Source of the DNA: a virus
Taxonomy: Duplodnaviria; Caudoviricetes
DNA length: 64,000 nucleotides
Strand: one strand, 5' to 3'
IMG/VR virus record: IMGVR_UViG_3300037255_000025
Location: 96,001-160,000 of that record
Both the position numbers and the translations under genes were made by a program. This document shows positions 143 through 53,760 of the stretch, one piece after another. The notes beneath the pieces were generated by a model that saw nothing but the letters and a program-made list of their open reading frames with translations, was not told where the DNA came from and ran no database searches. Each line of letters begins with the position of its first letter. Within the stretch, counting starts at the first letter, position 1.

Positions 143-343
143 GTGGGCGCACATCTGGTCCGTGGAGAGTTTCAGTCCGATAAGTACCCCACCTGTCCGC
201 CTGGCAAGGTCCCGTTGAGCGTACGGGACCCGATGGCGCAGGATCTACTCTGGGAGTACGCGCAGAGACGAAGGGCGGTCGACGCCGAGTTCTCGGATGA
301 CCTCGAGACCGCGCTCCTTGCCGCAGGTTACGTGGCCGCTTAG
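143..343 (+). CDS. hypothetical phage protein
   Basis: 66-aa ORF whose stop overlaps the next start. Confidence 0.55.
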   Translation: MGAHLVRGEFQSDKYPTCPPGKVPLSVRDPMAQDLLWEYAQRRRAVDAEFSDDLETALLAAGYVAA

Positions 344-3300: not shown

Positions 3301-4329
3301 AACTTTGGGGCCCAGACGGACCTCCGCGACGGGGGGAAGATCGTCGGGCAGGCGCCCGGGGTGCTGCCGGCGCTTCTGCTGCGCCACCTCCTGCCCATCG
3401 CGGTGCCGCTCCAGCTCGAAGACCTCGAGCAGGCGTTGCCGCCCAAGACCGAGATCACGGTCGAGATTGAACCGTCTCCTGAGCTGCTCCGGCGGTACCA
3501 GAAGATGGAGCGCGGCCTGCGCGACCAGATCAAGCAGGACCGCTTCGTGAAGGGACTGTCCGGCCGGTTGTTCGGCGCTCTGACCGAGATGGTGTCGGCG
3601 CCCGACCGGCTCTCGCACGACACCGGCAACGAGGGCGCGTCGCGGCCGAACGCGTGGGAGACGCGCTACCCCCCGGGGTGCAGCGCTGCGGGTGGTCTTG
3701 TGGCGAGCGCGGAGGCGTTCCCGGTCGACCACCTGTTGCCCAAGGAGCGGTGGTTGATCCGGACGCTATGGGCCGAGCGCGCGGAGGGCCGGCGCGTGAT
3801 GGTGTTCGGGTGGCACCGGTCGGTCCTCGACCGGCTCGCGCACCTGATCGCGGACCTGACGGAGGAGGCGGTCGTGGTGTTGGACCCGGGAAAGGTGGCG
3901 CCGAAGGTCCGGGGGGCCTGGATCGATCGGGAGGTTGTCGCGAAGGGCGTACCGTTCTTGGTCGTGAACCCCGTGTGCGTTCAAACTGGCCTAAACTGTC
4001 TCACCTGGTTCCACTCGGTGGTCTGGTATGAAAACCCAAATTTCAGCCCGACGATCCGTCGGCAGGCCAACGGGCGGATTCGTCGGATCGGCCAGGAGAA
4101 GGAAGCGCGCTTCTTCACGCCGACCGTGTCGGACACGATGCAGCCGCTGGCGATGGAGCTGCTGATGGTGAAGCAGGGCGTCTCCGAGGCGACCGAGGGG
4201 CTGGACGCCGAGGCGTCGTTCACGGCCTCGGGCGTGGGCGACCCGAGCAGCGTGATCGCGGGGCGGGAGATCGGCCAGGTGTTGTTTGAAAAGATGCAGG
4301 AGCGCGACGACGCCGCCAAGAAGCTCTAA
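343..4329 (+). CDS. N6A/N4C DNA methyltransferase (DUF6094-like) fused to SF2/SNF2-like helicase
   Basis: N-terminal FDPCAGEG (SAM binding) and ANPPY; GETGCGKT Walker A, QDEAH motif II, LTGS motif III, QTGLNC, QANGRIRRIGQ motif VI; CPRCG Zn insert. Confidence 0.85.
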   Translation: MARAAAQALAGYFPAPNEAVDLALSRVALDPGNHVVFDPCAGEGAAVYRLAAGLYASLPPKEASYVAYDDARPTLPALKHVFACEMEAGRHAKLDQARWQHLGSKVPVTTARGDAFALDLGLDSNSDPVGQCSILWANPPYDQDPEAGPGGRLEERWLKRFTPALAPGGVLLFLVPYYALAASADTIAREYGVVECWRLPGALFDQFKQVLLVARRAAVPLHEPDAAVAHQVRAWADDADATPELGASHPPPVRVRGLEDAATGFDAFSVRALDLALVRAALTPWEFIKRGSRVAGRGVLPEGPFADLITRRYPVATPPRPPHIAAGIAAGAYNGARLHSDTAGLPDLLVKGSFSKRFQCVEEKFNKDGDVVAELQVEQPRLAVTVLDPAAGLYVDLKGEVTPKVGATPKLADFSVGDLLRHYGSSLIEVLRHQCPALHDPSRDEGVQPASFTRQLFPAQRHTIAAIVKLLKGEDRAALLVGETGCGKTGCSIAAVTAMGYRRPLVMAPPHLVTKSWPDQVRACLGAKARVVVLDSLEAVDRHARDQDPDVVFAILSREAAKLGHAWEGADPGWRTGLPLAAGSKAGARGKKLKPVNRCPRCGSPVPVDADQEPLMPEVLARRRVRCEVELRVPKLPEHPAAPTDEERREGSMARWAERLGALLGPCAPSDALVREVAPRVTRWQMARLLKKKQSRPWTAERGRAAFLLLAAELRRAWQRGAEVAPVDARLYLLALHAAADPRAVLWEARRLYWASRTNVEDSYGREEGLRGLARELLLLLPRAEQDLAAVELRGRIELKGRYGWDWDDWNRARVDGGARWIGGFYVETRGISVTVDKAASGSIEAARAVLALVMASAAWTTLPPCGEPLFQAVPRPRRYPLANYIRERYPRCFDALIQDEAHENASIGSAQGLASQQLLNLRLPTIALTGSVMNGYASSLFTLLWGLSSRFRAEYARADQVRFVRDCGYVKRMVEVSASGATKETNFGAQTDLRDGGKIVGQAPGVLPALLLRHLLPIAVPLQLEDLEQALPPKTEITVEIEPSPELLRRYQKMERGLRDQIKQDRFVKGLSGRLFGALTEMVSAPDRLSHDTGNEGASRPNAWETRYPPGCSAAGGLVASAEAFPVDHLLPKERWLIRTLWAERAEGRRVMVFGWHRSVLDRLAHLIADLTEEAVVVLDPGKVAPKVRGAWIDREVVAKGVPFLVVNPVCVQTGLNCLTWFHSVVWYENPNFSPTIRRQANGRIRRIGQEKEARFFTPTVSDTMQPLAMELLMVKQGVSEATEGLDAEASFTASGVGDPSSVIAGREIGQVLFEKMQERDDAAKKL

Positions 4330-6081: not shown

Positions 6082-7658
6082 TGAAGCGAACGATCCTGGG
6101 CGGCGTACGTGTGCTCTTGATCGACGACCTGTCTCCCGAGGACTTGGCCATGTGCATGGCCCTTTACGCGCGCTCCGGCGAGAGCGTCGAGGTCCACTAC
6201 GAGAAAGTCATGAAGGCGCGGCGGCGAGCGCTCTCGAGGGCGCTGGATCCGTGGGACTACCCCAACGGCGACCCGGAGGGCGACATCGTGGACGCCGTGA
6301 TGGATGTTTGGGGCGACAACCACCCGACCGCGCGCGCGGAGAAGCTCGGGAAGCAGTACGTTGTGGGGTACGGACACCGCAGCATCGCGGACAACGGGTA
6401 CACCGCACTGTTCTTCGAGGGCGTGTCGATGCTGGCCGCGAAGGCGATCCAAGACACGCCGCTGTACAACGGCCAGGAGATGTCCTCGCGGGCGGTTGAC
6501 TGTGGCGAGCAGCCCTACGTCGATCCGGTCGGTACCCCGGAGTCCCGCGCGGTGTTGGAAGGATGGCGCGCGTTGTACCGGCGCTGCTTGCTGGCTGCCG
6601 TGGACGAGACGATGGTGCGTCACCCGCGGCGCGAGCCCGAGGAGGACTTGGGCCAGTACAACCGCGCGGTCAACATGCGCGCGTTTGACGTCGCCCGGGC
6701 GATGCTGCCTTTCGGGTGCGCGACCCAGGTGGGTTGGAGCGGGACGCTGCGCCACGTCGGCGAGCGCCTCGGGGTCCTCAAGCACCATCCGAGCGCGGAG
6801 GTGCGGGCGCTCGCGGAGGTCGCGATCGAGCTGTGCCACGGGCGCTACCCGGGGTCCGGTTTCGGGGATGCGGTCGCGTCGGGCGTCGGGCTGCTGAACG
6901 AGCCGACCGAAGGCGCCATGGCACGCGACGCTTGGACCGCGCTCGCCGCGTCACTCGTGACCTACCGGCCGGAATTGGGTCGTCCGCTCAAGGAGAGCGT
7001 TTGCTACGACTTCGGTGAAATGAAGTCTGGCTGGCTCGGGAGCCCCGACCCCGACCTCGTGGAGGGTGAGCAGGCCTTTACCGAGAAGGTTCGTGATCTC
7101 CTCCAGTTGCGGCCGCGCGGCGCTTTGCTCCCGTGGAGCCTGACGAAGTACGGGCTGGCGGACTTTGAGTTCCCGCTGGACATGGGGTCCTGGCGCGACC
7201 TCCAGCGGCAGCGAGCGATGGTGGTGCCGACGCCGCTGCTCACGGCGGACCTCGGGTTCGAGCCGTGGTACCTCGACCAGTTGCCGGCACCCGGCGGCGA
7301 CAAGCGCGCGGGGAGCCTGGGGGACATCGGCGCGGAGGTCACGGCGTTGCTCCACCGGGCCAAGGCCGTGACGGACGACCCCGTGGCGCGGCAGTATTAC
7401 TTGCCGCTGGGCGCGAGGGTCCGCGCGCGCGTCTCGGCAGGTCTGCCGGGGCTCGTGTACTTCTTGGAGCTTCGGACGGGCAAGACCGTCCACCCGACGC
7501 TCCGCGCCCGGGCGCTCGAGATGGCACGTGCGTTCCGCCGGGGGTTTCCGGACGTTGCGATCCACGTTGACGAAGACCCGGATGGTTGGAGCCTGCGCAG
7601 GGGTGCCGCAACGCTCGCGGAACGCGTTAAGGTGGTTGAGTCAACGACCCCTCTCTGA
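6078..7658 (+). CDS. thyX: FAD-dependent thymidylate synthase, tandem-domain ThyX/Thy1 type
   Basis: YVVGYGHRSIAD, QEMSSR, FDVARAMLP, RDLQRQR, YFLELRT...HP. Confidence 0.8.
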   Translation: MMKRTILGGVRVLLIDDLSPEDLAMCMALYARSGESVEVHYEKVMKARRRALSRALDPWDYPNGDPEGDIVDAVMDVWGDNHPTARAEKLGKQYVVGYGHRSIADNGYTALFFEGVSMLAAKAIQDTPLYNGQEMSSRAVDCGEQPYVDPVGTPESRAVLEGWRALYRRCLLAAVDETMVRHPRREPEEDLGQYNRAVNMRAFDVARAMLPFGCATQVGWSGTLRHVGERLGVLKHHPSAEVRALAEVAIELCHGRYPGSGFGDAVASGVGLLNEPTEGAMARDAWTALAASLVTYRPELGRPLKESVCYDFGEMKSGWLGSPDPDLVEGEQAFTEKVRDLLQLRPRGALLPWSLTKYGLADFEFPLDMGSWRDLQRQRAMVVPTPLLTADLGFEPWYLDQLPAPGGDKRAGSLGDIGAEVTALLHRAKAVTDDPVARQYYLPLGARVRARVSAGLPGLVYFLELRTGKTVHPTLRARALEMARAFRRGFPDVAIHVDEDPDGWSLRRGAATLAERVKVVESTTPL

Positions 7659-9640: not shown

Positions 9641-10606
9641 GTGGATCCCGTGACTGGTATTGAGGCCCTGCCGGCGCCCGGGGATCCTGACGCGGTCTAC
9701 TGTTTTGACCTGAACGGATTTATCTGGCGGCTTGCTTCGAGTCCGTTCATGGCCGGCAAGGCCGCGCTGGGGTTCGCCCGGACGCTGCGTCGGATCCTGC
9801 GGGAGCGACGTCCGGGTTACCTGGCGGTTGCGGTCGACAACGCGCTGCCGACGTTCCGCCACGACCTGTTCCGGCAGCACTCGGCCATGTTGGGCGCCGA
9901 GGACTACAAGGCCGACCGGGTCAAGCGGATCAAGCCCCACGAGCGCGCGGCCGTGTTGGAGCAGATTCGCACGGCCCAGGAGCTGCTCGAAGACGCGTAC
10001 GGCGTCCGGTGCCTCGCGGCCCGGGGGTACGAGGGGGACGACGTCTTGGCGACGCTGGCCCAGCGCGGGCTCGACGCTGGGCTGAAGGTCGTGGTGGTCG
10101 CGTATGACAAGGACATGTTCCAGCTCGTGCAGCAGGACCGCTGTTGGGTCTGGGATGGCGAGGGTCGGGTGTTCGACGCCGCGGCGGTCGAGGCCAAGCT
10201 CGGGTGCGCGCCGGACCGCGTGGTCGACTTCATGTCGATCGTGGGCGACTCGACCGATGGCGTGCGGGGCGTCGTCGGGGCCGGACCGGTCGCGGCGTTG
10301 AAGGTCTTGGCGGCGTTCCCAACGCTCGATGCCGCGCTAGAGTCGGCGGAGCGTGGCGACCAGGACCACCCGCTGTGGCAGCAGGATCCGCGGCTCTGGG
10401 CCAAGGTGGTGTCGCAGCAGCGTCAAGCGCAGCTTTGCCGCCAGCTTGTGACGCTCGCGCGTGACGTCCCGCTGGCCGTGACGCTCCAGGAGCTGAGCCT
10501 GTCGGCCTCGATGGCGGTGGAGCTAGCGCTCCAGGACACGACGGCGTCCGAGGCCGACCCTGTTGACGGTCCCGAGGCGTTCGAGTGGTCGGTGGCGGAT
10601 GTTTAG
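9641..10606 (+). CDS. 5'-3' exonuclease / flap endonuclease (Pol I N-terminal-like)
   Basis: FDLNG, YKADR, GYEGDDVLATL, DKDMFQL, GDSTDGVRGVVGAGP (H3TH). Confidence 0.9.
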   Translation: MDPVTGIEALPAPGDPDAVYCFDLNGFIWRLASSPFMAGKAALGFARTLRRILRERRPGYLAVAVDNALPTFRHDLFRQHSAMLGAEDYKADRVKRIKPHERAAVLEQIRTAQELLEDAYGVRCLAARGYEGDDVLATLAQRGLDAGLKVVVVAYDKDMFQLVQQDRCWVWDGEGRVFDAAAVEAKLGCAPDRVVDFMSIVGDSTDGVRGVVGAGPVAALKVLAAFPTLDAALESAERGDQDHPLWQQDPRLWAKVVSQQRQAQLCRQLVTLARDVPLAVTLQELSLSASMAVELALQDTTASEADPVDGPEAFEWSVADV

Positions 10607-10632
10607 TCGCACCGCGGGGTAAGGTGGACGAA

Positions 10633-11436
10633 GTGAGCATCCTATCTGACAGCGCGGTCCTGGTCGCCATGGACCAAAAGCGCATCGTGATCGATCCGTT
10701 CGACCGAGCGCGCCTGGGGTCAAACAGCTACGACGTTGCGCTCGGCCCGCGCCTGCTGGTCTACGAGACCGAGGAGCCGATCCTGCGTCCGGATGGCCGC
10801 GTTTTCTTCCCGGGCGCGCCGACCATCCTGGACGTCCGAAAGCAAAACCCGACGATGACGGTCGACATCCCGGAGTCCGGGATCGTCCTGCACCCCGGGC
10901 AGCTCTACCTGGGCTCGACGATTGAGCGGACCGAGAGCCACGACTTCGTGCCGGTGCTGTGTGGCAAGAGCAGCCTCGGTCGGTTGGGCCTTTCCGTGCA
11001 CGTTACCGCAGGATTCGGGGATGTAGGATTCTGCGGGGCATGGACGTTGGAGCTGATGGTCGTGCGCCCGCTCCGCATCTACGCCGGCATGCCGGTGGCG
11101 CAGATCGCCTGGCACACCGTCGAGGGTTTGGTTCTGCGACCGTACGGGTTCAAGCCGGGGGCGAAGTATGCGAACCAGTCGGCGGACCCGGTGGCGTCGG
11201 AGATGTGGCGGAACTTCGACGGCCTGAAGCCTGACGAGTGGCGACCGACCCCTAGCCGCGACCTTCCGCCGTTTAAGCTCAAGCCCGACGAGCGATCACA
11301 GCGCTGGCGCGACGCCGAGGCCCTGTGTGGTCCAGGCTACTGCCCACCCGACGCGCTCAAGATCATCGAGGAAGAGCAGGCCGCGTACGACGCCAAGCTG
11401 TCCGCAGTAAACCTCGACGGTGTGGGGCGGCCGTGA
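10633..11436 (+). CDS. dcd: dCTP deaminase
   Basis: ILSD, NSYDVALG, GKSSLGRLGL, TAGFGDVGFCGAWTLEL, GMPVAQI, KYANQ. Confidence 0.9.
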   Translation: MSILSDSAVLVAMDQKRIVIDPFDRARLGSNSYDVALGPRLLVYETEEPILRPDGRVFFPGAPTILDVRKQNPTMTVDIPESGIVLHPGQLYLGSTIERTESHDFVPVLCGKSSLGRLGLSVHVTAGFGDVGFCGAWTLELMVVRPLRIYAGMPVAQIAWHTVEGLVLRPYGFKPGAKYANQSADPVASEMWRNFDGLKPDEWRPTPSRDLPPFKLKPDERSQRWRDAEALCGPGYCPPDALKIIEEEQAAYDAKLSAVNLDGVGRP

Positions 11437-11681
11437 GCTACGTGGTCCGGATATCAAGCGGGTATGACCGCTTGGCCTCCTTTTACGTGGCCGACGACGG
11501 GAGGATCACGGCGCAATTCGAGGATGCTAAGGAGTACCCGACGGTGGAGGCGGCCGAGCGAACGACGTTCTGGGTTGCGCGTGTCTGGGTAGGTTATGAC
11601 GTACGTGTCGTAGACCTTGCGGAAGAACTCCTGACGCGAGAAGCCGCGCGTCAGGTTGGCGTCGAGGACCCGCTGTGGTGA
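11433..11681 (+). CDS. small paralog family member 1 (LADELLEREA family)
   Basis: AKEYPTVEAA; VVDLAEELLTREAAR; GTGA overlap. Confidence 0.65.
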   Translation: MSYVVRISSGYDRLASFYVADDGRITAQFEDAKEYPTVEAAERTTFWVARVWVGYDVRVVDLAEELLTREAARQVGVEDPLW

Positions 11682-11983
11682 GCGGCGCCGCGTGGTTGTT
11701 GGTGATGCCGCGACCCCCGGGGGTGAGCCGGCCTGCGCTGATGTGGTATGTTGGGGGCGCAACCTGGACGTACGACGCGCTCCGCGCGACCGCGTTCCCG
11801 ACCGCCGAGGCCGCCAAGGCCCAGGTCGACGCCGCCGCGATGGGGCTCGGCCCCAAGGTCGCGTTGCGCGTCCGGGCGGTGCTGTTCGCGGAGGTGCTGC
11901 GCGAGAACGAGGCGGTGCTGCGGCGTGCGGTGCCTGTCCTGACGGACCCACGGGGCGGTCCTGGGGGACGGGGCCGTGGTTAG
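11678..11983 (+). CDS. small paralog family member 2
   Basis: WLLV; ATAFPTAEAA; VLFAEVLRENEA. Confidence 0.6.
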   Translation: MSGAAWLLVMPRPPGVSRPALMWYVGGATWTYDALRATAFPTAEAAKAQVDAAAMGLGPKVALRVRAVLFAEVLRENEAVLRRAVPVLTDPRGGPGGRGRG

Positions 11984-12235
11984 GCGCCAAGGGCCTTTCG
12001 TCGTTCGGGTCGAGACCTGGGAGGAAGACAAGCCCGTGGCCTTCTGCCGTTGTCACCCGCGTGCTCGCGGCGAGGTCGCCTGACGCGTCACCCGTCGTTG
12101 GCCGCGGCGTTCGCGGTCGTTGGCCAAGCAAACGTTCTGGCCACCCGATACGCCCGAAAGTACGGGTGGACCCGCACCTCGCGCGTTGTCCCGCTCGCTG
12201 ATGCCCTGTTGGAGGTTGAGGCGGGCCTTGTCTGA
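11976..12235 (+). pseudogene. small paralog family member 3, apparently frameshifted
   Basis: C-terminal VVPLADALLEVEA is in a frame lacking a good start; plausible N-terminus (FVVRVETW) is in another frame. Confidence 0.45.
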
Positions 12236-12500
12236 GTTCTTGATCCGGTTACACAGAGACGGAGTCTGGCCGTACTACTGGACCCAGTATTACTTGGGTT
12301 GGGTGACAGAGCCCTCGCGGGCGACCCCCTACTTGGAGGAGGAAGCGCGCGAGGAACTCAAGCGCGTGATCCACTACTTGGAGGAGGACGCGCGCGAGGC
12401 ACTCAAGCGCGTGATCCGTCGGACAAGTCAGCCGAGTCTCGACGTCGTTCCGTTGTCCGACGCGATGTTGGACCGGGCCGCGCGCTATCCCAACCTCTAG
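12228..12500 (+). CDS. small paralog family member 4 (internal 15-aa duplication)
   Basis: WVTEPSRATPY; VVPLSDAMLDRAAR. Confidence 0.65.
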   Translation: MSEFLIRLHRDGVWPYYWTQYYLGWVTEPSRATPYLEEEAREELKRVIHYLEEDAREALKRVIRRTSQPSLDVVPLSDAMLDRAARYPNL

Positions 12501-12742
12501 CCCAACGCCTCCTCTTCGAAGTGGCGCAGGCCGTGGAGGGACCTCGGCGCGCGCAACGCGGCGCTCGGGCGCGAGCGTGCGACCGCCGCCCAGACGGCCT
12601 CCGCGGCTTCCTCAGCCGCCGACAGGATCGGCGGCGGGTACTCGAGCGCGCTCAGGGGGGCCGTGACCCGCGTACGCCTCGCCGGGTACGGGGCCGCGTA
12701 GGGGTTGCAGATTTTGGCAGACTGGGGCACAAAGCTCATCAC
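12497..12742 (-). CDS. hypothetical protein
   Basis: 81-aa ORF preceded by an AAGAGG RBS-like sequence and a GC hairpin. Confidence 0.4.
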   Translation of the reverse strand: MMSFVPQSAKICNPYAAPYPARRTRVTAPLSALEYPPPILSAAEEAAEAVWAAVARSRPSAALRAPRSLHGLRHFEEEALG

Positions 12743-12989
12743 GTTGACCTCTTGCTCAGGTTGACCAGGCCCTCGGCGTTACCCGCGCCGGGGGCTTTCG
12801 TTCGTCTGAGAAGCTAAAACCGGGCCGGAGTCGCGGCCCTGGTAACTTAAGGCTTTTCTAGCAATTCTGCACGGCCGGTAGACGCAAAAACGCATCACAC
12901 GTCCTACAATTGCGCATCGGGGCGATCAACCCCGGGCGTAAGGGCGGCGCGGGTTCCGAAGCGTCGCCCGCGGGGGTAAGGATCCGGGC

Positions 12990-13238
12990 GTGGGCGAACA
13001 GCATGTCGGCGCGTGGATCGTGAAAGTAGTCGGCGGACACGTAGACGTGTCCGCGGCGTGGGTGGTGCGCATCGGCGCGATGACAGGGGCCAGCCGCGTC
13101 ACGACCGAGCCCGGGAAGGCGGTGTTCACCACCCGAGCCACGGCGCTCGACTGGATGAAGGCAAACCACGCGTCCGCGGGGTGCGCGGTTCCGCTGGCTG
13201 ATGAGCTGCTTGAGTGCGAGGCCCGACGGACGCCATGA
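12990..13238 (+). CDS. small paralog family member 5
   Basis: WIVK; AVFTTRATA; VPLADELLECEARR. Confidence 0.7.
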   Translation: MGEQHVGAWIVKVVGGHVDVSAAWVVRIGAMTGASRVTTEPGKAVFTTRATALDWMKANHASAGCAVPLADELLECEARRTP

Positions 13239-13498
13239 AGCAAGCGTGGATCCTGCGGGAGTTGCCTGACGAGCCTGACGTGGCGCTCTCGTCGGTCTGG
13301 CGGAGACCTACGCTCTACGTAAGCGTGTACGGTGACGATTGCGCGGTCTTCGCCCTTTCGGCAGCAAAGGTGTTCCGGTCGGCAGCTTGCGCAGAGCGTC
13401 ACCGTCGTCGTCTTTTGATGCCCGATCGGTGGACCGTGGTTCCGTTCGCGGACGCGATGCTCGATTACGAGGCGGCGCGCCATGAGGCGGCCCGATGA
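13235..13498 (+). CDS. small paralog family member 6
   Basis: WILR; AKVFRSAACA; VVPFADAMLDYEAAR. Confidence 0.7.
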   Translation: MKQAWILRELPDEPDVALSSVWRRPTLYVSVYGDDCAVFALSAAKVFRSAACAERHRRRLLMPDRWTVVPFADAMLDYEAARHEAAR

Positions 13499-13758
13499 GC
13501 CGCGATGCTGGCTGGGTCCTGAAGTCGCGGATGACGGCGGAGTACTTTGTGGCTGGGGTTCGGACGGGAGGTACTTGGTACACCGGGGTTCGGACGGGAG
13601 GTGCTTGGTACACCGTCGCGCCCTACTGTTCGATGGGCCGCGTGTTCTGGACGGAAGCCGACGCCCAGGAGGCCCGCGGTCGCCTCGACGACCCGGAGAC
13701 GTGGATCGTGGTCCCGTTGGCGGATGAACTGCTGGAACAGGAGGCCCGACGCCGATGA
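13495..13758 (+). CDS. small paralog family member 7
   Basis: WVLK; VFWTEADA; WIVVPLADELLEQEARRR. Confidence 0.75.
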   Translation: MSRDAGWVLKSRMTAEYFVAGVRTGGTWYTGVRTGGAWYTVAPYCSMGRVFWTEADAQEARGRLDDPETWIVVPLADELLEQEARRR

Positions 13759-14045
13759 CCTGGGTCTTGGTCTGTAGACGCCCCGGCGCGCAACGCGGCG
13801 CGCAACGCGGCGCGCAACGCGGCGCGCAACGCGGCGATACTTATTACGCCCGGGACCTGCGTTCGCACGGTGAAGACTGGCCATACACGCTCATGCTCGA
13901 CTTCGCCCAGGAGTTCTCGACCGAGCAAGCCGCGCTCGCGCATCGGATAGAGCACCCCAGCGATGATCACGAGCTTGTGGTGGCGGGTCCTTGGATCGTG
14001 GTTCCGCTGGCGGATGAGCTGCTGGAACGGGAGGCGCGGCGCTGA
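13755..14045 (+). CDS. small paralog family member 8
   Basis: WVLV; AQEFSTEQAA; WIVVPLADELLEREARR. Confidence 0.75.
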   Translation: MTWVLVCRRPGAQRGAQRGAQRGAQRGDTYYARDLRSHGEDWPYTLMLDFAQEFSTEQAALAHRIEHPSDDHELVVAGPWIVVPLADELLEREARR

Positions 14046-14323
14046 TGAGCTGGGTCCTGAAGCAGGCGGCGTTCCACGACGGCCGTGTACCTAAGGAGCC
14101 CCCCGCGCCGTACTACCTGGGCAGGACTCGCCCCGTGGCTCAGGACTCCGCGGCGGCGTGGTACACGAGTCCTGGGGACGCGATCGAATTCACGACCGAG
14201 CAGGATGCACGGGACTTCGTTCAGGAGCGGGGGATCCTCGGGGAGTGGCGACCCGTTGATCTCGCGGGTGAACTGCTGGCGCGCGAGGCTGCGGGCCCGA
14301 GCGGCAAGCCGGACCGCGGATGA
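14045..14323 (+). CDS. small paralog family member 9
   Basis: WVLK; AIEFTTEQDA; PVDLAGELLAREAA. Confidence 0.75.
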   Translation: MSWVLKQAAFHDGRVPKEPPAPYYLGRTRPVAQDSAAAWYTSPGDAIEFTTEQDARDFVQERGILGEWRPVDLAGELLAREAAGPSGKPDRG

Positions 14324-14330
14324 GGACCCG

Positions 14331-14555
14331 ATGCCCTGGATCCTGAAGCAGGACAGACCCTGGCCCTGGTACGTGTGGCGCGCGTTCCCAGCGCTCGTCG
14401 CCAACGGGGCGTACCACATGACCGATAGCCCCGGGAGGGCGCTCGCGTTTGACACGTGGGCCGAGGCCGACCGCTTCCGTAGCCCCAGTCTCGACCTCCA
14501 TTGTGTCAACCAGGCGGACGAGACGCTGTCGTGGGCCGCGGCCCAGCACCCGTGA
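14331..14555 (+). CDS. small paralog family member 10
   Basis: MPWILK; ALAFDTWAEA; VNQADETLSWAAA. Confidence 0.65.
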   Translation: MPWILKQDRPWPWYVWRAFPALVANGAYHMTDSPGRALAFDTWAEADRFRSPSLDLHCVNQADETLSWAAAQHP

Positions 14556-14571
14556 AGGCCGCGAAGCCCGT

Positions 14572-14817
14572 GTGGATCGTGAGATTCGGGTCGCGACGAT
14601 CGACGATGTGGGCCTGCCTTGCTGGCTTTACTTGTACATGGACGCCAACGACGACGTTGAGGCGACGAGCTGGCTTGACCTCGCGACCGAGTTCCCTCGT
14701 TCGGGGGAGGCGCGCCGGCTTCTGAAGCGGGGGGGTCTAGGCCCCGTGGGCTGGGAACCCGTGGACCTCGCGGACGAGATGCCTGAACACGCGTTGGAGC
14801 ACGAGTCGCGGCGCTGA
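14572..14817 (+). CDS. small paralog family member 11 (possibly frameshifted from a start at 14552)
   Basis: ATEFPRSGEA; PVDLADEMPEHALEHESRR; WIVR lies in the adjacent frame. Confidence 0.55.
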   Translation: MDREIRVATIDDVGLPCWLYLYMDANDDVEATSWLDLATEFPRSGEARRLLKRGGLGPVGWEPVDLADEMPEHALEHESRR

Positions 14818-14844
14818 GTCGCGGCGCTGAGTCGCGGCGCTGAG
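14803..14844. repeat. 13-bp tandem repeat x3 (GAGTCGCGGCGCT)
   Basis: Read directly from the sequence. Confidence 0.9.
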
Positions 14845-15080
14845 CAGAAACCTGTCTGCGGGGCGTTCGGGCTCAACGGCGTAGGCGCGCTCTAGCGTGC
14901 GTCTCCGTGGAGCCTCCTTGGGAACCCGGGCCAGTATATCGCCGGACGCGCCAGAAGCGTCTCGTGTGGCCGCGACGCCCCCCGGGCGCCCGCTCGGAGC
15001 TTCCTCGGAGCTTCCTCGGAGCCTCCTCCCGCGCCCCACGCTTGCGGCAAGGGCTGCCGCGCCGGTACAATGCCCTCTCC

Positions 15081-15935
15081 ATGCCGAGAAAGTTCCGTCC
15101 CCCGGTCGACCCCGCGCTGCGCCAGAAGCGCCCCGCGCTGCCCCGTACGCGCGCGCTCTACGATGAGTATGTCGAGCAGTTCCGCCGGGATAGCCGCATC
15201 GCCCGGGTCGCCGCCCACTTCGGCGTCACGTGGACGACGGCCCGGATCGTCTACCACGACGGGTGGGTCGGGATCCCCTGGGCCCGGCCGATCAAGAAGG
15301 TCCTGGAGCAGGACGTCTTCGAGGAGGAGAACCGGTCCCGGGAACAAGCCCGCCGCGACCGCGCCCGGGAGCTAGAGGCCCGGGAAGCCGAGCAGGAAGC
15401 GAAGCGCGAGGCCCTGAAAGCCGAGCGACAACGGGCCCAAAACGAAGAGGCCACGCTGGTCACCAGCACCCGCCGAGGCCTCCAGCAGCTTGCCTCAGTC
15501 GTGCTGGCGCTGAGCCCCGCGGCGGCCCAGATGGTCCGGGTCGTGATGCGCGAGGCGTTCGACGAGACCGTCGGGCCGGACGGCAAGCCCCAGTACACGC
15601 CCAAAGCCATCCCGACGATCAAGCCCGACGCCGCGATGAAGTACCTGAACGCCATGGCCCAGATGGCGGCCCGCGTGACCGTCGCGGGCGTGGATCTTTC
15701 GCACTTTGCCGCCGAACGCCGTGGGCCGGAGCCCACGGTGGGCGCGGTTGAGATGACGGAGGAGGAGAACGAGGAGGCGTTGCAGCACGCCCGCTCCATC
15801 CTGTGGAGCCTCGACGAGGAGGCCCGGCTGAAGCGGGAGGACGCGTACCCGCGGCCCGAGGCCCCGGCGGTCGCGCGGGAGGACGCCCCGGACAAGCCCT
15901 CGATCGGGCCCCAAAACCCGGGCGAAGTGCACTAA
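15081..15935 (+). CDS. HTH + coiled-coil protein, possibly terminase small subunit
   Basis: IARVAAHFGVTWTTARIVY HTH; charged coiled coil; TTGCGG-N18-TACAAT upstream. Confidence 0.5.
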   Translation: MPRKFRPPVDPALRQKRPALPRTRALYDEYVEQFRRDSRIARVAAHFGVTWTTARIVYHDGWVGIPWARPIKKVLEQDVFEEENRSREQARRDRARELEAREAEQEAKREALKAERQRAQNEEATLVTSTRRGLQQLASVVLALSPAAAQMVRVVMREAFDETVGPDGKPQYTPKAIPTIKPDAAMKYLNAMAQMAARVTVAGVDLSHFAAERRGPEPTVGAVEMTEEENEEALQHARSILWSLDEEARLKREDAYPRPEAPAVAREDAPDKPSIGPQNPGEVH

Positions 15936-16000
15936 AGGTATATACCTTTGCTTGCGGGTATATACCTTTGCTTGCGGGTATATACCCGAAGGTATATACC
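15934..16000. promoter_or_regulatory. four GGTATATACC palindromes (operator/iteron-like)
   Basis: Copies at 15937, 15957, 15977 and 15991; first three have a 20-bp period. Confidence 0.7.
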
Positions 16001-16008
16001 CCGGATTC

Positions 16009-16425
16009 ATGGCAGCTAAACAGAAGCGACTGTTGGTTTGGTCGGCGAGGGCAGAGGCGGCCCTTCGTCGCGCGGAAACGGAGCGGAGGGCCTCCTTGGG
16101 TCGGGAGCTTCTCCCGCGCGAGAAGTCTGCAAGCTCCGTTGTGCTCTGGGCCCTTGAGTCGGTCGGGTCTCCGCGACCTACTATCCGTGAGCGTGTCCGC
16201 GAGAAGGTTGTGCAGGCTCATGTGTATCTTGAGGGCGACCCCGTGGGCGAGCAACACGACGCTGCCGTCGCCATGGCTAGGCTGCGCGAGATCGAGGCGC
16301 ACCCTGAGCGCCTCGTGAGGGGCGAAGAACTGGGGAAGCTCCTTGATGGGCTGGCGGAGTTCCCCGAGCCCTTGGTCGAGTACGACGACCCTCGGGTTGC
16401 CGCGAAGAAGGCCCGGCGCGGGTAA
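16009..16425 (+). CDS. putative DNA-binding protein (ribbon-helix-helix-like N-terminus)
   Basis: Basic beta-like N-terminus KQKRLLVWS followed by helices; directly follows the palindromes. Confidence 0.45.
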   Translation: MAAKQKRLLVWSARAEAALRRAETERRASLGRELLPREKSASSVVLWALESVGSPRPTIRERVREKVVQAHVYLEGDPVGEQHDAAVAMARLREIEAHPERLVRGEELGKLLDGLAEFPEPLVEYDDPRVAAKKARRG

Positions 16426-16435
16426 GGACCGGGGC

Positions 16436-16768
16436 GTGCCCTGGATCATCAAGCTCACGGAGCTGGCCACGACGCACTGGCCCTCCCCGGGACGGACGGC
16501 GTACCTGCGGGCGTGGCCCCAAGGCCCTGTTGGGTGGCGCGCCGTCCAGATGACGCACATCGTCGCGACCGACGGCGCGGCCGTTTGGGTGCCAGAGCTG
16601 AGCCTGGCGAAGGTGTTCGCCACCGAGGAGATCGCGCGCGCCGCGGCGGACCGATGCCGGTCCAAGATCGGGGAGGCGCGGTTTGTGCGGCTTGAGTTCG
16701 CGGACTGGGCGGGGGAACTGTTGGAGCGAGAAGCCGCCCACGCTGGGGGTAAGGGACCGCGAACGTGA
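16436..16768 (+). CDS. small paralog family member 12
   Basis: MPWIIK; AKVFATEEIA; ADWAGELLEREAA. Confidence 0.7.
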   Translation: MPWIIKLTELATTHWPSPGRTAYLRAWPQGPVGWRAVQMTHIVATDGAAVWVPELSLAKVFATEEIARAAADRCRSKIGEARFVRLEFADWAGELLEREAAHAGGKGPRT

Positions 16769-17988
16769 AGATCCTCCGAGCGTACAAGACCGAGCTGGAC
16801 CCCACGGTCTCCCAGACCGAGCAGCTCCTACAGCACGCCGGTTGCGCTCGCTGGGCTTACAACTGGGGTCTCCGAAGGAAGATCGAGTCCTACGAAGCTA
16901 CGGGCAAGAGTCCGTCCTGGGTGGATCTCAACCGCGAGCTGAACGTGATCAAGAAGCTCCCCAAGGAAGCCGGCGGGGTCCCGTGGATGTACGAGTCCTC
17001 GAAGTGTGCCCCGCAGGAAGCGCTCCGAAACCTTGATCGAGCCTTTGAGGGCTTCTTTCGTCGGTGTAAGAGCGGCTCGAAGCGGAAAGGCTTCCCTCGG
17101 TTCAAGTCTCGTAAGCGGGGCATCGGTAGCTTCAAGTTCAGCGGAACGATTCATGTAGAAGAGCGACGGGTTCAGCTTCCCCGTCTCGGGAAGATCAAGC
17201 TCAAGCAACGCGGGTACCTCCCGACCTCGGGGGTGAAGATCCTCTCAGCTTCGGTCTCGGAGCGAGCGGGGCGGTGGTTCGTTTCGATCCAGGTTGAACA
17301 GGGGCTACCGGATCCCGCACCCAAGCCCACGTCGGTTCTCGGGATCGACGTTGGGATCAAGAATCTCGGGGTCACCAGCGAAGGCGAGGTCTTCTCCAAC
17401 CCGAAGGCGCTCCTGGCAGCGCAGAAGCTTCTCCGAGCGCGTCAGAAGTCTCTCGCGAGAAAGACCAAAGGATCGAACAACAGGAGGAAAACGGCCGCTA
17501 GGGTCGCCCGTCTACACGCTAGGATCTCCAATATCCGGAGGGATTCGATCCACAAGATGACGACTGCGATCACCAAGCAGGCGTCGGTTCTCGTGATCGA
17601 GGATCTCAACGTCCTTGGGATGCTGAGAAACCACTGTCTCGCCCGGTCTCTGTCGGATGCCTCCCTCGGGGAGATCCGCCGGCAGCTCACCTACAAGAGC
17701 AAGTGGCGCGGGGTCGAGCTTCGGGTAGCGGACCGCTTCTATCCAAGCAGCAAGAGGTGCTCGGGGTGTGGAGCGGTCAAGGTCTCGCTCTCGTTGGCCG
17801 AGAGGGTCTACCGATGCGAGCTTTGTGGTCTCGTGATCGATCGAGACCTGAACGCTGCCCTCAACTTGAAAGATTTGGCCGGGAGTTCCCCGGTGCAAGC
17901 CTGTCGCCCTGGAGGCTCTGGTGCTGCTCTTACGAGCGGTACGAAACCTCTGGTTGGGCAGGAACCGAACCGGGAGGCTTCCTCGTGA
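16765..17988 (+). CDS. tnpB: TnpB RNA-guided nuclease (IS607/IS605 type)
   Basis: AYKTELDPT..HAGCARWAYNWGL; GIDVG, IEDL, DRDLNAA RuvC triad intact; CSGC/CELC zinc finger. Confidence 0.93.
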   Translation: MKILRAYKTELDPTVSQTEQLLQHAGCARWAYNWGLRRKIESYEATGKSPSWVDLNRELNVIKKLPKEAGGVPWMYESSKCAPQEALRNLDRAFEGFFRRCKSGSKRKGFPRFKSRKRGIGSFKFSGTIHVEERRVQLPRLGKIKLKQRGYLPTSGVKILSASVSERAGRWFVSIQVEQGLPDPAPKPTSVLGIDVGIKNLGVTSEGEVFSNPKALLAAQKLLRARQKSLARKTKGSNNRRKTAARVARLHARISNIRRDSIHKMTTAITKQASVLVIEDLNVLGMLRNHCLARSLSDASLGEIRRQLTYKSKWRGVELRVADRFYPSSKRCSGCGAVKVSLSLAERVYRCELCGLVIDRDLNAALNLKDLAGSSPVQACRPGGSGAALTSGTKPLVGQEPNREASS

Positions 17989-18512: not shown

Positions 18513-19210
18513 CGATCAGCCCGTTCGGCACGGGCGATCATGTCGTCGTTCGCCGCCCTGTGGGCTTCCCTGTCGTGGTGATCTTCCGCGTGCGCGTGAG
18601 TCGACGCCATCAACGTGTTGCTGGCCTTCTTCCACGCGTCCTTCGCGTCGGAGTGGGCTTGGGCTGCGTTCTGGTGAAGCTCTTCGAGGGTTTGGTCACC
18701 GCGAGTGACCCCCGCGTTAGCCAACTTCGTGGCAGCGTTAGCGGCCGCCGACGCGGTCTTCGCCGCGTTTTCCTTCGCCGATGTCTTCTGCGCCGCCACG
18801 TCTAGGGTCTTCGCGTCGCCTTGGTGCGCGGTCGCGGCCGCTTCGTGCGCCGTGGCCGCTTTGTCGTGTTGCTCGACGGCGTTCTCGTGGGCGTATGCCA
18901 TGTCCGGCGTATCTGTCTTCTTCTGCTTCTCATGGTCCGCGGAGGCTTCCTTGTGGGCCCCCGCAGCCTTCAGGTGCGCGGCAGCCGCATCCTTGTGCGC
19001 GGAAGACGTACCCTTGTCCTGGGCCGCGCGCGTCGCGGCCCCAGCTGCTTGTGACAGTTTCGCCGCGGCCCCCGACTTCCCGCCGAGGTCTTCAGTTCCC
19101 GAACCGCGGCGCTCCGCCGCGTTACCCGCGCCGGTAGACGCGAACCGGCCGTGTTCATCACGCTCGGCCTTCGTCACCAGGAAGCTCAACCGCTTTCGAG
19201 TCGTTTCCAT
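18509..19210 (-). CDS. Ala/His-rich helical-repeat protein, candidate virion/head protein
   Basis: VTKAERDEHGRF N-terminus; HxxAAxAH repeats. Confidence 0.6.
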   Translation of the reverse strand: METTRKRLSFLVTKAERDEHGRFASTGAGNAAERRGSGTEDLGGKSGAAAKLSQAAGAATRAAQDKGTSSAHKDAAAAHLKAAGAHKEASADHEKQKKTDTPDMAYAHENAVEQHDKAATAHEAAATAHQGDAKTLDVAAQKTSAKENAAKTASAAANAATKLANAGVTRGDQTLEELHQNAAQAHSDAKDAWKKASNTLMASTHAHAEDHHDREAHRAANDDMIARAERADR

Positions 19211-20139: not shown

Positions 20140-23100
20140 CTAGACGGGCGTTCGCCTAGCCAAACCACTGATGCTCCAACCAGTGTACTGGCCCGCCTTG
20201 ATCTGCGCCCAAATCTCGTCGTCGACCACCCTACAGGCGAGCAACCAAGTCCCCTTCGCGACCTTACGGCCGTTGATGATCAGGTCACAGGGTGCGATGT
20301 AACTTTCTACCGGTCGCAAATGCCCGTTCACGAGGACCTTATGCTGGAGATCGATGTTCCGGTAGTCCTCCATCCAGCGGTGCGCCGACTTGGCGATCTC
20401 ATCGGCGTCGTAAGTGTCGAATTGCGCGTCCACCGACGGGGACGGCTTCAGCACAATTCCAAGGATGTACCGCTGCTCTACTGGAGCCGCGTCGTCGGCT
20501 TTCCCGACCTCGACGATCTCGACCTCGCGCTCGTCGGCCTTACGGACGTGGCGCTCGTTGATGAACCCTGGGTCGCCCGTACCCTCGGCTGCGGGCACGA
20601 CCGGGATGAACGGCCGCGTCATCGAGTCCGCGGAGTCGCTGGCCTTCTGGGCGAGACCTTCGAGTGAGCGGTCTGGCGTCGGCGTGTTGCCCTCGGCGGC
20701 GCGCAACGCGGCGCGCACGTCAGGACCCGCGGCCTTTTGGGCGAACTTCCCGTCGTCCTCGCGTGGCTGGTCACCGCCAGACCCCGCGCCCTTGTCGTCC
20801 GCCTTTGAGCCGGTTCCGTCGGGCTTCGCCACCGCGACCTTCTCGGCGTGAGCCTGGCCCGCGTCGAGTTCTCCCTGGAGGTCGGCCCAAGCCTTCGGGT
20901 CGTCGATGTCCGAGTGGAGCCGGTCGAGCGCGTCGTGGGTCTTCTCGGCTGCGGTCTTGTGACCCTCGGCGGCCTCTTGGTGGCGCTCAACGCCCGCCTT
21001 GTCGCCCGCCTCGGCGGCCGCGACGGCGGCGCGCGCGTGCTCCGCCGCGGCTTGCTCGTGGTCCCCGGCGACCTTTGCGGCCGCGGCGGGGTCGGGCTTC
21101 GCGGCCTTGTCCCCGTTGAGCTTGTCTCCGCCGGGCTTCTTTCCGTCAGCGGCGATCTGCCGCGAGGTCGTGCCCGCGCGATCGGAGGCGTGCTGCGAGA
21201 CGATGTCGAGTGCGTTGGACACGACGTTCAGCGTCGAGTGGAGCAGGCTCCGGGCATCGGTGATCTGTGCGGCCTCGTGCAGCAGGTCTAGCCCATGGCC
21301 CGCGCGGGGTGCGGCTCCGTTGGCCGTGCTACCGCTTCCCGAAGCGCGCGGGGTCTTACCGCCCGAAGCCGCCCGCGGGGCCCGGTCCTCGCCCGACAGG
21401 GGCGCACGGCGGTCGTGTTCGCTCACGCGCGCGCCGGTCGAGCGATGGTGCTCGTCGACGTGGACCGACGCCTTCGCGACCGCGGCCTCGTTGATGTCGT
21501 CGAGGAGCTTGCGCGCGGCAGCCGAGCACGACGCCTTCACGTCCGCCGGCAGGTTTGACTGCGGGATCCGCGCGAGCGCGTTGCGCACGTGGGCCGCGTC
21601 GGGCTTGCCGTCCGGACCCCGGACCGGGAAGTGCCGGAGCGTCTTGGGCGTCGTCTTGCCGTCGACCTTCTCGCCGCCGGACTCGACGTGGAGGAACGCG
21701 GAGTCCGGAAGGTCGTTTACCTCGGCAGAACTCCACTCGGCTTTGCGAACCTCGGCGAGGTCGAGCGCCGCCGCCACTGAGTCCTCAAACGCGTCCGCCA
21801 GGAGCGCCTTCGTGACCTCGGCGGGTTCGAGACCCAACAGGGCCTTCACCATCTGCACCGACGTGGTCTGGATGCACTTCAAAGTCGCCGAGGGCTCGTG
21901 TTCTTCGAAGGCTGCCGCCGCCTTGTCGGCGTCCTCGAAGCCAAAGAGGATTGCGTACTCGGAAAACTGGCTGTCGGCTTTCTGGTGTACGGCCCATTGG
22001 GCGCGAGTATCGTTCGCCTTCGGCCCGAGGAAGACGTCCAGGCCCGTCCCGACATCCCCCGCGATCCCGGGGATGAATCCGTAGTCGAACTTGTAGACCA
22101 AGTCGCCCAATTCACTCTTCTGAACGAACCCCGCGGGGCGGTCGACGTGGACCGGGACGCCTTGGTAGTCGACCTTCTTGATGACGGGACCGCGGGGTGC
22201 GCGTCCCGTCGGAAGTGGCTGGCCGGGGGCGTCGTAGCCCTCGGTGTGCCCCTCCTCGCCGACGACCTTCTGCGATACCGCGTAGCCCACGGGGGTGTCG
22301 CGCCGGACCGTGTAGCCCGCGCCGGGCTCGGCTCCGCCGACGCGCTCGTCAGGACCGGGAACCTGCGGGCTGTTCTTCGCCGCGGGCTCGATGCCGTCGT
22401 CCTCATCCGACGGGAGCTTCGCTCCCTTACCGGGCGCGGGAGGCCGCGGCTTTCCCGGAGCCTTCGGGGTCCTGGCCGCAACGCCGCTCTTCGGCGGCCC
22501 CGCCGTGGTGTCCGCGGGGTCCTCCCCAGGCGGGGCCTTGCCGTCGGGACCCGTCTGGTCCTCGCCCTGTCCGGCGAAGTCGCCCAGGCCCGCGCCTTCG
22601 GCGGAGTCCGTCGGCGCAACGCCACTCGTCAGGTCGTCCCAGTCCTTGTCGGTCATGGACGCCAACGCGTCCTGGATGCCGGCGAGGATCGTGTTGGTGA
22701 ACAGCTCGGTCCCGTCGTCATCGCCGAGGTCGGCCTTGAACGTGACGCCGATGGCACGCTGGGCCGCGTGCTTCGCCAAGTGCTCGACCGTGTGTTCGGC
22801 CGCGTGAGCCGCCAGGTGGTGCGCCAGGGCCTCGGCAAAGTGCGGGACGGCGTGCTCGATCGCGGACCCAACGGCGTGTCCGACGCCGGGCAACGCGGCA
22901 CCAACGGCGGCGAACGCGAGCTTGACCGCGACCTTGAGCGCGACGGTCCGCATCGCGGCCTTCTGCTCTGGCGTGACTTCTTTGCCCGTAACGGCGCTCT
23001 TGAGCCCCTGAGCCGCGGTCTTGACCAATCCGACCTCGTGCATGACCGCGCCCTTGAGCGCCTGGGGCGCGCCCTTGATCTTCTCGACCGCGGACGCCAG

Positions 23101-49783: not shown

Positions 49784-50615
49784 GGAGCCTCCGCAGGACC
49801 TCGGCGGCGGCCCACCAAGCAAGCACACCGCCCACGCGGCCCCCGCCGGTCGCGACCACGATACCGGGCGACGCCTCTCGCACGGTGGGCTCGGGCAGGA
49901 CAGGGCGCATCCCCCAGATTGAACCACGATCCTCAAGCGTGCCCACAGCTTCTTGGAGCGGACCCAACGCCCGCACGCGCATTTTCTCTGTGTAGTCGTG
50001 CGCGCGCGATGGATCGCGCTCCAAAGTCTCGCCAAGCCGCACGACACCCAACCCCCACGAACGCGCCGCGTAGGCAAAGTACGACGTCACCGGGACCAGC
50101 ATCGTCCGTGCGGGCGTTCGCTCCGCCTTGAACAAGAGACCGCGCCCGCCGAGCGCCTCGACGCCCACGAGGGCAAGCCCGCTTGCGTTCAGAATCTGGT
50201 CCGTCCAGACGCCCGCGGCGAGCACAACAAGCCCGCCCTCGACAACGTCGCCCCCCTGGAGGTGTACGCGGCCGCGCTCGACGCGCGTGACCTTCCCCGC
50301 AGCCCGCTCTGCGTAGAGCGCCAAAACGTCCTCGGGCCAGAACGTCGCCCAGTCCAACCGTGCCTTGCGTCCGACGACATCGGCACCGTCGAAGTCAAAA
50401 ACAGCCCCGTGTTGCCGTCCGAGCGACTCGGCTGCGCGCGCTCGCTCGGCCCAAAGGCCCTTGTACCAAGAGCGCGCGTAATAGCCGCTCGCCGCTCGTG
50501 AGGCCGCGCTGGGCTCCGCCGAGTCGATCAAGGTAACAGACGCGCCTGCGTCGGCCGCGACCCGCGCGATAGCGGTCCCCCAGAAGCCGCCGCCCACCAC
50601 GACGAGGTCCTTCAA
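49776..50615 (-). CDS. FAD-dependent oxidoreductase (DAO/glycine oxidase-like)
   Basis: VVVGGGFWG, ASRAASG, VVLAAGVW, WGMRP, ATGG. Confidence 0.85.
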   Translation of the reverse strand: MKDLVVVGGGFWGTAIARVAADAGASVTLIDSAEPSAASRAASGYYARSWYKGLWAERARAAESLGRQHGAVFDFDGADVVGRKARLDWATFWPEDVLALYAERAAGKVTRVERGRVHLQGGDVVEGGLVVLAAGVWTDQILNASGLALVGVEALGGRGLLFKAERTPARTMLVPVTSYFAYAARSWGLGVVRLGETLERDPSRAHDYTEKMRVRALGPLQEAVGTLEDRGSIWGMRPVLPEPTVREASPGIVVATGGGRVGGVLAWWAAAEVLRRLRG

Positions 50616-53632: not shown

Positions 53633-53647
53633 GCCCGCACTGTCTCA

Positions 53648-53760
53648 GAGACGTCTCAAACTTGCAACGTTCTCCGGGGGGTTCAGCAAGCTGATACCCG
53701 GTTCGGTTCCTGCCCAACCAGAGGTTTCGTACCACGCTTACGCGCAGCACCAGAGCCGCC
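53648..53760 (-). ncRNA. orphan TnpB reRNA-like scaffold with its own guide
   Basis: Near-identical to 17911-18009 with compensatory hairpin changes; ends GGAGAACG; no tnpB adjacent. Confidence 0.65.

Follow-up and report, generated by a model that had tools for sequence, protein, structure and literature searches.

A family of small paralogous genes, arrayed in tandem, occupies part of a 64-kb window of phage DNA (the whole stretch analysed here), and neither the proteins nor their fold model correspond to anything described. The window covers bases 96001-160000 of a virus record of 169,748 bp, rated complete by CheckV. When a hidden Markov model (HMM) of the copies is run against all six-frame open reading frames (ORFs) of the genome, 27 members are retrieved at E-values of 4e-28 to 4e-6. 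The next-best frame follows at 0.11, a gap that excludes chance. Twelve members lie at 11433-16768 of the window, together with a truncated thirteenth further along. Outside the window, and numbered on the whole virus record (G000), a second array of 11 genes is found at 165668-168742 (minus strand), along with three single members at 7221-7481 (minus strand), 18697-19008 (minus strand), and 70278-70532 (plus strand). The family takes up about 4% of the roughly 170-kb genome of this uncultured soil phage. As a kind of locus, it is already known: a hypervariable cluster of small accessory genes that is reshuffled between close phage relatives. As to function, the best fit, which we put forward tentatively, is a repertoire of putative small binders or inhibitors directed against variable host targets, perhaps for host takeover or counter-defence.

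A preliminary description of the window had listed thirteen of these ORFs, and all of them exist at or near the positions it gave. Its copy number holds for the window but falls short of the genome total of 27, as the second 11-gene array and the three singles had not been counted. Similarly, the eleven plus one full ORFs and the truncated one are present, but m3 looks frameshifted and m13 lies on the minus strand. GC3 is 0.71-0.88 in every member, the excess of G and C at third codon positions that marks genuine genes of this phage, and ORFs of the family are conserved in relatives. Members are numbered m1-m13 in the window and a1-a11 in the second array (array B). Those of the window are the following, with the E-value of the HMM match in parentheses:

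11433-11681, plus strand: m1, 82 aa (2.5e-20)
11675-11983, plus strand: m2, 102 aa (1e-17)
11976-12235, plus strand: m3, degraded; its C-terminal half (12050-12235, 61 aa) carries the motif VVPLADALLE
12228-12500, plus strand: m4, roughly 90 aa with an uncertain start; its orthologue P0026 lacks an internal 45-nt tandem duplication seen here
12990-13238, plus strand: m5, 82 aa, GTG start (1.4e-22)
13235-13498, plus strand: m6, 87 aa (2e-23)
13495-13758, plus strand: m7, 87 aa; a 30-nt tandem duplication in the first variable loop, one unit of which is missing from its orthologue P0014
13755-14045, plus strand: m8, 96 aa; a 12-nt repeat in 4.4 copies (GAQR four times) in the first variable loop
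14045-14323, plus strand: m9, 92 aa (3.5e-28)
14331-14555, plus strand: m10, 74 aa (9e-22)
14572-14817, plus strand: m11, 81 aa, atypical N-terminus (1.5e-16)
16436-16768, plus strand: m12, 110 aa, GTG start (1.7e-22); its orthologue is about 93-99% identical, depending on the aligned span
53738-53929, minus strand: m13, truncated, 63 aa; the C-terminal strand and helix (last 27 residues) are lost

The short overlaps reported earlier between neighbouring genes are all found: GTGA between dcd (dCTP deaminase) and m1 and between m12 and TnpB, ATGA at the m5/m6, m6/m7, and m7/m8 junctions, and TGATG between m8 and m9. DNA similarity at the 3' ends of the genes is likewise real, if moderate (75-87% over 52-68 nt), and the conserved stretch runs across the stop/start overlap into the first codons of the next gene. 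At 14803-14844, the stop codon of m11 and the spacer behind it are covered by 3.2 copies of a 13-nt tandem repeat, GAGTCGCGGCGCT, that match at 100%.

The ancestral arrangement can be read from two relatives, L033 (a 130-kb ENA contig) and L034 (contig QGNH01001869.1, from an accession series that belongs to the Stordalen Mire peat virome; PMC6786970). Both are collinear with the present genome from the methylase-helicase gene to m12 and, after m12, run straight into a1-a11 on the same strand. Here, the alignment breaks off at G000 112759 and resumes at 168773 in the opposite direction. Both breakpoints coincide with edges of two inverted TnpB copies (G000 112765-113985, plus strand, and 168780 to the end of the record and on to 462, minus strand), which are 88-93% identical and bound a roughly 55-kb inversion relative to L033 and L034. 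At the TnpB positions of this genome, the sites of both relatives are empty, and in both the two arrays and TerL lie on the strand of the dCTP deaminase gene. Judged from these alignments, the ancestral state is one super-array of members, a 284-aa gene, a small ORF, and further members, which is split here because of an inversion between the TnpB copies that the relatives lack. The record ends overlap as well, G000 1-210 being 99% identical to 169539-169748 (210 nt) within a TnpB gene, so the linear record is probably a circular or circularly permuted genome that was broken by the assembler at the repeat. The elements that accompany the members in the window are:

12497-12742, minus strand: small non-family ORF, 81 aa, GC3 0.90, also called in L033 and L034
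12958-12981, plus strand: upstream motif GAAG-N15-TAAGG, 8 nt before the GTG of m5
15081-15935, plus strand: conserved 284-aa protein of no known family, 99% identical in a relative and embedded in the ancestral super-array
15937-16000: four perfect 10-bp palindromes, GGTATATACC, spaced by 20, 20, and 14 nt and ending 8 nt before the ATG at 16009
16009-16425, plus strand: small conserved ORF of up to 138 aa (109 aa called in a relative), with no family match
16404-16427, plus strand: upstream motif GAAG-N15-TAAGG, 8 nt before the GTG of m12
16765-17988, plus strand: TnpB (OrfB_IS605 and Cas12f1-like TNB domains), one of the two inverted copies

The 81-aa ORF, which is about 93% identical in L033 and has no family match, separates an m1-m4 unit from an m5-m11 unit and adjoins the only AT-richer intergenic stretch of the array; m12 is the last member before the inversion breakpoint. 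A comparison of array content among related phages, which had been proposed as a check, shows that this content differs: the super-array holds 23 members here and 16 in the relatives, although the phages are about 90% identical, with m3, m4, m9/m10, a2, and a7-a9 missing or replaced in L033 and L034. Three copies are decaying. The first, m3, is probably a frameshifted pseudogene; an N-terminal-like strand lies in another frame (11976-12083), and the gene is absent from L033. The second, a9, is frameshifted and has an intact orthologue, P0003. As for m13, a full-length orthologue (P0022, 86 aa) is present in a relative, and the frame directly downstream (53600-53737, minus strand) reads GTKPLVGQEPNR, the C-terminus of the window TnpB. 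This TnpB-like remnant is probably the right end of an insertion sequence that caused the truncation.

Several signals bear on how the arrays may be expressed. A phage-specific, promoter-like bipartite motif, [ACG]AA[CG]-N15-TAAGG, has 22 copies in the genome and stands 7-9 nt before the GTG starts of m5, m12, a1, and a8, that is, before four of the 23 arrayed genes; its TAAGG half could also act as a ribosome-binding site. The other members are joined by overlaps of 1 to 8 nt or by short gaps. A search of the region for sigma-70-like promoters found none and no excess, and terminator-like hairpins are in weak excess only. The palindromes, which lie midway along the ancestral super-array, look like an array of operators for a dimeric regulator: GGTATATACC occurs nowhere else in the 170-kb genome (0.11 copies expected in the window), and four copies are kept in L033 and three in L034.

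No known family accounts for these proteins, in agreement with the first reading of the sequence, and searches of Pfam, PHROG, NCBIfam, and PDB were all negative. The Pfam hmmscan of the members, at E-values up to 10, gave no matches to DUF2849. At a threshold of E<0.001, nothing was retrieved by the PHROG scan (best E 0.056, a single member) or the NCBIfam scan (best E 0.021, a single member), and a profile search of PDB sequences reached E 0.3-0.6 at best (a pilin, and the 'F.s.eeA' helix of NDUFS4). There was no match for m9 by tblastn in 50,697 cultured phage genomes or for the region by megablast against phages, and the dCTP deaminase used as a query against viral contigs retrieved no relatives. 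Closest in pattern are four small Pfam domains of unknown function, DUF2849 (PF11011), DUF7336 (PF24024), DUF7204 (PF23834), and DUF2188 (PF09954), which share a strand-strand-strand-helix order ending in an 'A..F.T..EA'-like helix. However, none of the 27 members is matched by any of them even at an E-value of 10. Against the whole genome, the DUF2849 HMM (gathering score 22.5 bits) hits one unrelated frame only (E 0.29), and the HMMs of the other three give no match at E-values up to 10. DUF2849 sequences were also sought in five genomes, and none was found. Sub-gathering matches do appear in distant fused homologues, to DUF2849 (E 0.0024-0.21; P0021, P0062, and P0060), DUF7336 (0.003-0.016), and DUF7204 (2.7e-4), and the Atlas lists a DUF2849 cluster at a TM of 0.50.

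The claim of a constant frame around a variable body stands up: this is a real, diversified paralog family. Its three shared motifs, an N-terminal W-[VI]-[LIV]-[KR], a central A..F.T...A, and a C-terminal V-V-[DP]-L-A-[DG]-E-[LM]-L-E.EA, recur in the family alignments, except that the N-terminal W motif is missing from m11. With the family alignment as input, AlphaFold2 modelled two members, m8 (pLDDT 82.7, pTM 0.74) and the 76-aa a6 (pLDDT 91.1, pTM 0.75). Both models are compact and have the same topology, strand1-strand2-strand3-helix1-strand4-helix2, so that a shared fold is predicted for these two copies. W-V-L-K forms strand 1, A..F.T...A leads into helix 1, V-V-x-L forms strand 4, and A-D-E-L-L-E.EA forms helix 2; strands 2 and 3 contain a conserved Y and W. 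Residues of core type (A, L, A, A, F/Y, Y, V, A, W) occupy the least variable columns in an alignment of 39 family sequences, and a T is also among the best-kept positions.

It had been proposed that the constant C-terminal helix is a docking element, so that the family would be an adaptor library in which this helix docks onto one partner (a protease, RNA polymerase, the virion, or an oligomer) while the variable body recruits targets. We consider this unlikely. The C-terminal element is indeed the longest conserved block in the family, helix 2 of a6 (20 residues) is longer than a small domain needs, and the 99%-conserved 284-aa protein inside the ancestral array could be the partner. However, strand 4 and helix 2 are modelled as integral parts of the domain and are the most confident part of both models (above 90). 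The conserved residues of helix 2 form an A-x3-L-x3-A stripe of core type, whereas the exposed acidic positions vary, being kept in only 20-26 of the 39 sequences. In addition, the first half of the motif also occurs inside fused repeats, where there is no free tail: internal repeats of P0025, a fused four-repeat protein, end in 'FVPLAD' and 'VVPLSE', and a free C-terminal docking peptide is impossible there because the element ends internal repeats. Based on model confidence, conservation pattern, and these fused forms, the helix is probably part of the fold core and not a docking peptide, although the paralogs may still share a partner.

Such fused forms come from an HMM search of 1.84 billion representative proteins, which returned only 66 at E<0.001. 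The database search called for in the preliminary description thus points to two groups, solo and fused homologues. In the first are solo proteins (62-111 aa) of this phage, of close metagenomic relatives, and of L038, a more distant phage fragment with about eight copies. The second consists of long proteins (159-2419 aa) in which the core domain is repeated in tandem two to eight times. Five of these long proteins carry a 2H phosphoesterase domain, which in P0005 also matches Acb1. P0005 (1688 aa) combines eight repeats with the 2H/Acb1-like domain and an InPase domain and is encoded on a 121-kb phage-like contig between proteins of 816 and 2009 aa; repeats and a 2H domain are also combined in P0008, P0036, and P0051. 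The 2H and InPase domains are hallmarks of phage polyvalent proteins, which are read as early, often virion-delivered conflict effectors (PMC5512222), and polyvalent-protein domains are also found as solo proteins (Iyer et al. 2017, PMC5512222). The present family resembles polyvalent proteins in that its core domain occurs two to eight times in giant phage proteins beside 2H and InPase domains, but the copies in the window differ as solo genes with their own starts and an added C-terminal helix. The Pfam versions of the LPD models, as distinct from the paper's own LPD1-40 alignments, match none of these proteins, and neither of the phage's own two polyvalent-type giants (343-4329 and 20140-23631) holds the family domain. 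That solo genes are linked in this way to repeats within giant proteins appears to be new, at least to us, and the polyvalent-type association is the only functional pointer, an indirect one.

The fused forms also suggest a hetero-oligomeric or multivalent assembly, in which the paralogs would be the beads of one complex, as an unfused form of the tandem-repeat proteins. This reading ranks next after an adaptor library and is likewise not probable. Fusion of the same domain two to eight times in single polypeptides of other phages is an argument of the Rosetta-stone type for it, translational coupling suggests matched expression, and helix 2 might just as well use its Ala/Leu/Ala stripe as the interface of an oligomer. 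Nevertheless, a fixed stoichiometry is ill served by a copy number that varies between 23 and 16 and by three decaying copies.

How the copies diverge was assessed against their orthologues in L033. Where two identities are given, they stem from BLAST and from the alignment used for dN/dS; as the genes are short, the dN/dS estimates are noisy:

exo (5'-3' exonuclease), dcd, and the 284-aa gene (flanking): 89-99% identity, dN/dS 0.05-0.23
m1: 84% identity, dN/dS 0.77
m2: 98% identity, dN/dS 0.19
m5: about 61-65% identity, dN/dS 1.1
m6: about 60-64% identity, dN/dS 0.9
m7: 83-88% identity, dN/dS 0.29
m8: 55-62% identity, dN/dS 0.36
most array-B members: 92-100% identity, dN/dS not informative owing to few changes

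In the second array, a11 has a dN/dS of 0.34 and a1 a value near 1. Mismatches and indels between orthologues fall in the loops between strand 1 and strand 2 and between helix 1 and strand 4, while the gene ends stay 83-100% identical. In-frame tandem repeats of the first loop differ as well, with GAQR four times here and AHRE three times or none in the relatives, and the 30-nt (m7) and 45-nt (m4) duplications are found here and not in the relatives. Recombinant products are also present: one gene of a relative is a hybrid of the first 14 codons of a2 with the body of a3, and another has the start of m10 and the end of m11 around a different body. Whole-gene indels are bounded near gene ends, and the mapped breakpoints lie in the coding ends or in the first loop. 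The earlier suggestion that the conserved ends drive shuffling is thus supported by actual hybrid genes and unit indels in the relatives.

Alternatively, the paralogs may be largely dispensable and drifting, with unequal crossing-over at the repeated ends and little selection on each copy. A dN/dS near 1 in m5, m6, and a1, the three degraded copies, and the gains and losses of units between close relatives would all be expected in that case. We nevertheless regard drift as improbable. Fold-core residues are retained across copies that are only 20-40% identical to one another, purifying selection is clear in m2 (0.19), m7 (0.29), m8 (0.36), and a11 (0.34), the family persists in the divergent L038 with its roughly eight copies and as a domain in many distant phages, and some 4% of a packaged genome is costly to carry.

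Comparison of the two models with known structures offers few leads. Foldseek against the PDB gave nothing at E<1 for either. The highest Z reached by VIA-align against 48,161 chains was 4.9 with m8 and 3.9 with a6, below the stated background, in which the best Z is typically 7-8. The top chain for m8 is 8g9s_A (Z 4.9, 65 residues, rmsd 3.7), which aligns with a6 at a Z of 3.6 (51 residues, 26% identity), also below background; other weak neighbours are AcrIIC5 (8f3k) and AcrIF9 (7chr). Only uncharacterised small phage proteins are retrieved from BFVD, the top one from Sinorhizobium phage phiM12 (TM 0.59/0.63, E 0.023). Least probable of the alternatives is that the proteins bind nucleic acids and adjust how host or phage genes are transcribed or translated. 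Although the two-layer alpha/beta fold has RRM-like, SPOR, and topoisomerase I/III domains among its weak structural neighbours (Z 2.5-3.9) and the arrays lie in the DNA-metabolism region, all Z values are below background, net charges of -9 to +6 leave no common basic surface, and the conserved residues are of core type, with no conserved RNP-type polar or aromatic surface residues. A DNA-mimic or otherwise uniformly charged protein was also considered and rejected, given isoelectric points that range from 4.5 to 12.

The reading as a repertoire of binders or inhibitors draws on the combination of a rigid frame with fast loops, on the position of the genes in an early or DNA-metabolism region, and on the use of the module in polyvalent-type proteins. 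The family is a lineage-specific one of single-domain alpha/beta proteins (75-110 aa) modelled on one rigid frame, in which the strand1-strand2 and helix1-strand4 loops are hypervariable in length and sequence. The loops are diversified by point substitution, by slippage of short in-frame tandem repeats, and by recombination between paralogs at the gene ends, the last of which yields hybrid genes and gain or loss of whole genes. The family, its fold model, the place of its variability, the recombinant genes, and the differences in copy number are firmly established; what follows is proposed. From an ancestral super-array just downstream of nucleotide-metabolism genes, the members, translationally coupled and preceded at intervals by the upstream motif, would probably be expressed together early or in mid-infection, as both the coupling and the recurrence of that motif suggest. 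Each paralog would then use its loops to bind a variable host target of its own, in all likelihood a protein of defence or of some other host function, and probably to block or redirect it. The tandem 'beads' of the domain in giant proteins with 2H and InPase domains may serve the same conflict role. In its boldest form, the proposal describes a combinatorial binder repertoire on one rigid mini-scaffold, whose two loops would be diversified by repeat slippage and by in-register recombination of cassettes between paralogs. It would be a virus-side counterpart of an immune-receptor repertoire, would neutralise many variable defence proteins of the host, and would include the beads of injected polyvalent proteins; we hold this broader version to be doubtful.

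Several observations weigh against a binder repertoire. First, the variable loops may sit far apart, one at each end of the domain, a poorer fit to a single binding surface. Second, there is no significant structural match to a characterised inhibitor (best Z 3.6-4.9, 8g9s_A) and no PDB sequence match. Third, not all copies are fast, many array-B members being 97-100% identical between relatives. Finally, a dN/dS near 1 in short genes is also expected from relaxed constraint. Small anti-CRISPRs offer a comparison: they are small alpha/beta phage proteins of similar size, and 8g9s_A, a chain that may or may not itself be an anti-CRISPR, comes from a study of type I-C Cascade and anti-CRISPRs, but the Z is below background, there is no sequence match, and the family is not known to be linked to CRISPR.

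Among published systems, the nearest are the hyperplastic regions (HPRs) of T4-type phages with their PeSL cassettes (Arbiol et al. 2010, PMC2839356; Comeau et al. 2014, PMC4122927). In both cases, small, non-essential-looking early genes are clustered between blocks of conserved core genes, very close relatives do not carry the same set of genes (here with flanks 89-99% identical), recombination at short repeats leads to insertion, deletion, and replacement, and a promoter-like motif recurs. By contrast, the genes described here form one homologous family of 27, whereas those of HPRs are unrelated ORFans, and recombination takes place mainly at conserved coding ends instead of at promoter-terminator cassettes flanking every ORF. 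A PeSL-style promoter and stem-loop cassette for each ORF is not found, the motif having four copies for 23 arrayed genes. Moreover, this phage is not T4-like.

A second parallel lies in multigene families of eukaryotic DNA viruses, such as MGF110, MGF360, and MGF505 of African swine fever virus (ASFV) and the ankyrin and Bcl-2-like families of poxviruses, which are tandem diverged paralogs with copy-number variation, birth-and-death evolution, and a presumed role towards the host. The likeness concerns tandem diverged paralogs whose copy number varies between strains; unlike these families, the one described here belongs to a bacterial virus and consists of far smaller single-domain proteins with an unrelated fold, encoded in coupled operons.

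The wider setting of the arrays, in a genome with a GC content of about 68%, includes the following genes of the window:

343-4329, plus strand: DarB-like methylase-helicase (DUF6094 methylase and ResIII helicase dyad, 1328 aa), a polyvalent-type giant
9641-10606: exo, upstream of the array
10585-11436: dcd, whose stop codon overlaps the start of m1 (GTGA)
20140-23631, minus strand: 1163-aa protein with an InPase domain and a C-terminal XkdF-type protease, a polyvalent-type giant

ThyX, an RRXRR/HNH protein, and a P-loop kinase-like protein are also encoded upstream of m1. The region contains no tRNAs, and an Rfam scan of it was without matches. A 1035-aa terminase-like ORF at 46970-50077 (minus strand) has about 1.2 kb that is absent from the 527-aa TerL of a relative; this extra segment corresponds to a gap at G000 144322-145550 in the alignment with L036. 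Residues 129-586 of the ORF match intein-bearing terminase, helicase, and exonuclease genes of actinobacteriophages, and the ORF probably contains an intein or a homing element. With regard to the host, the bacterial TnpB proteins closest to the 16765-17985 copy (48-57% identity) are mostly from Chloroflexota (Anaerolineales, Ktedonobacteria, and Chloroflexia), which is a weak hint on either the host or the source of the element. Papers citing the QGNH accession series name no host for the L034 contig.

Whatever their role, the genes of this locus display several routes of diversification, through loop repeats, hybrid genes, and gain or loss of units. They also tie solo genes to repeated, unannotated modules of giant 'polyvalent' proteins, and thus provide a handle on a domain that is unnamed in databases. 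Protein engineers could also find a use for the scaffold (76 aa, pLDDT 91, no solved homologue). If the paralogs do bind or inhibit, each phage would carry a natural library of about 27 variants of one small and apparently very stable scaffold, with more in its relatives, and the array would point to the host proteins that a soil phage must neutralise.

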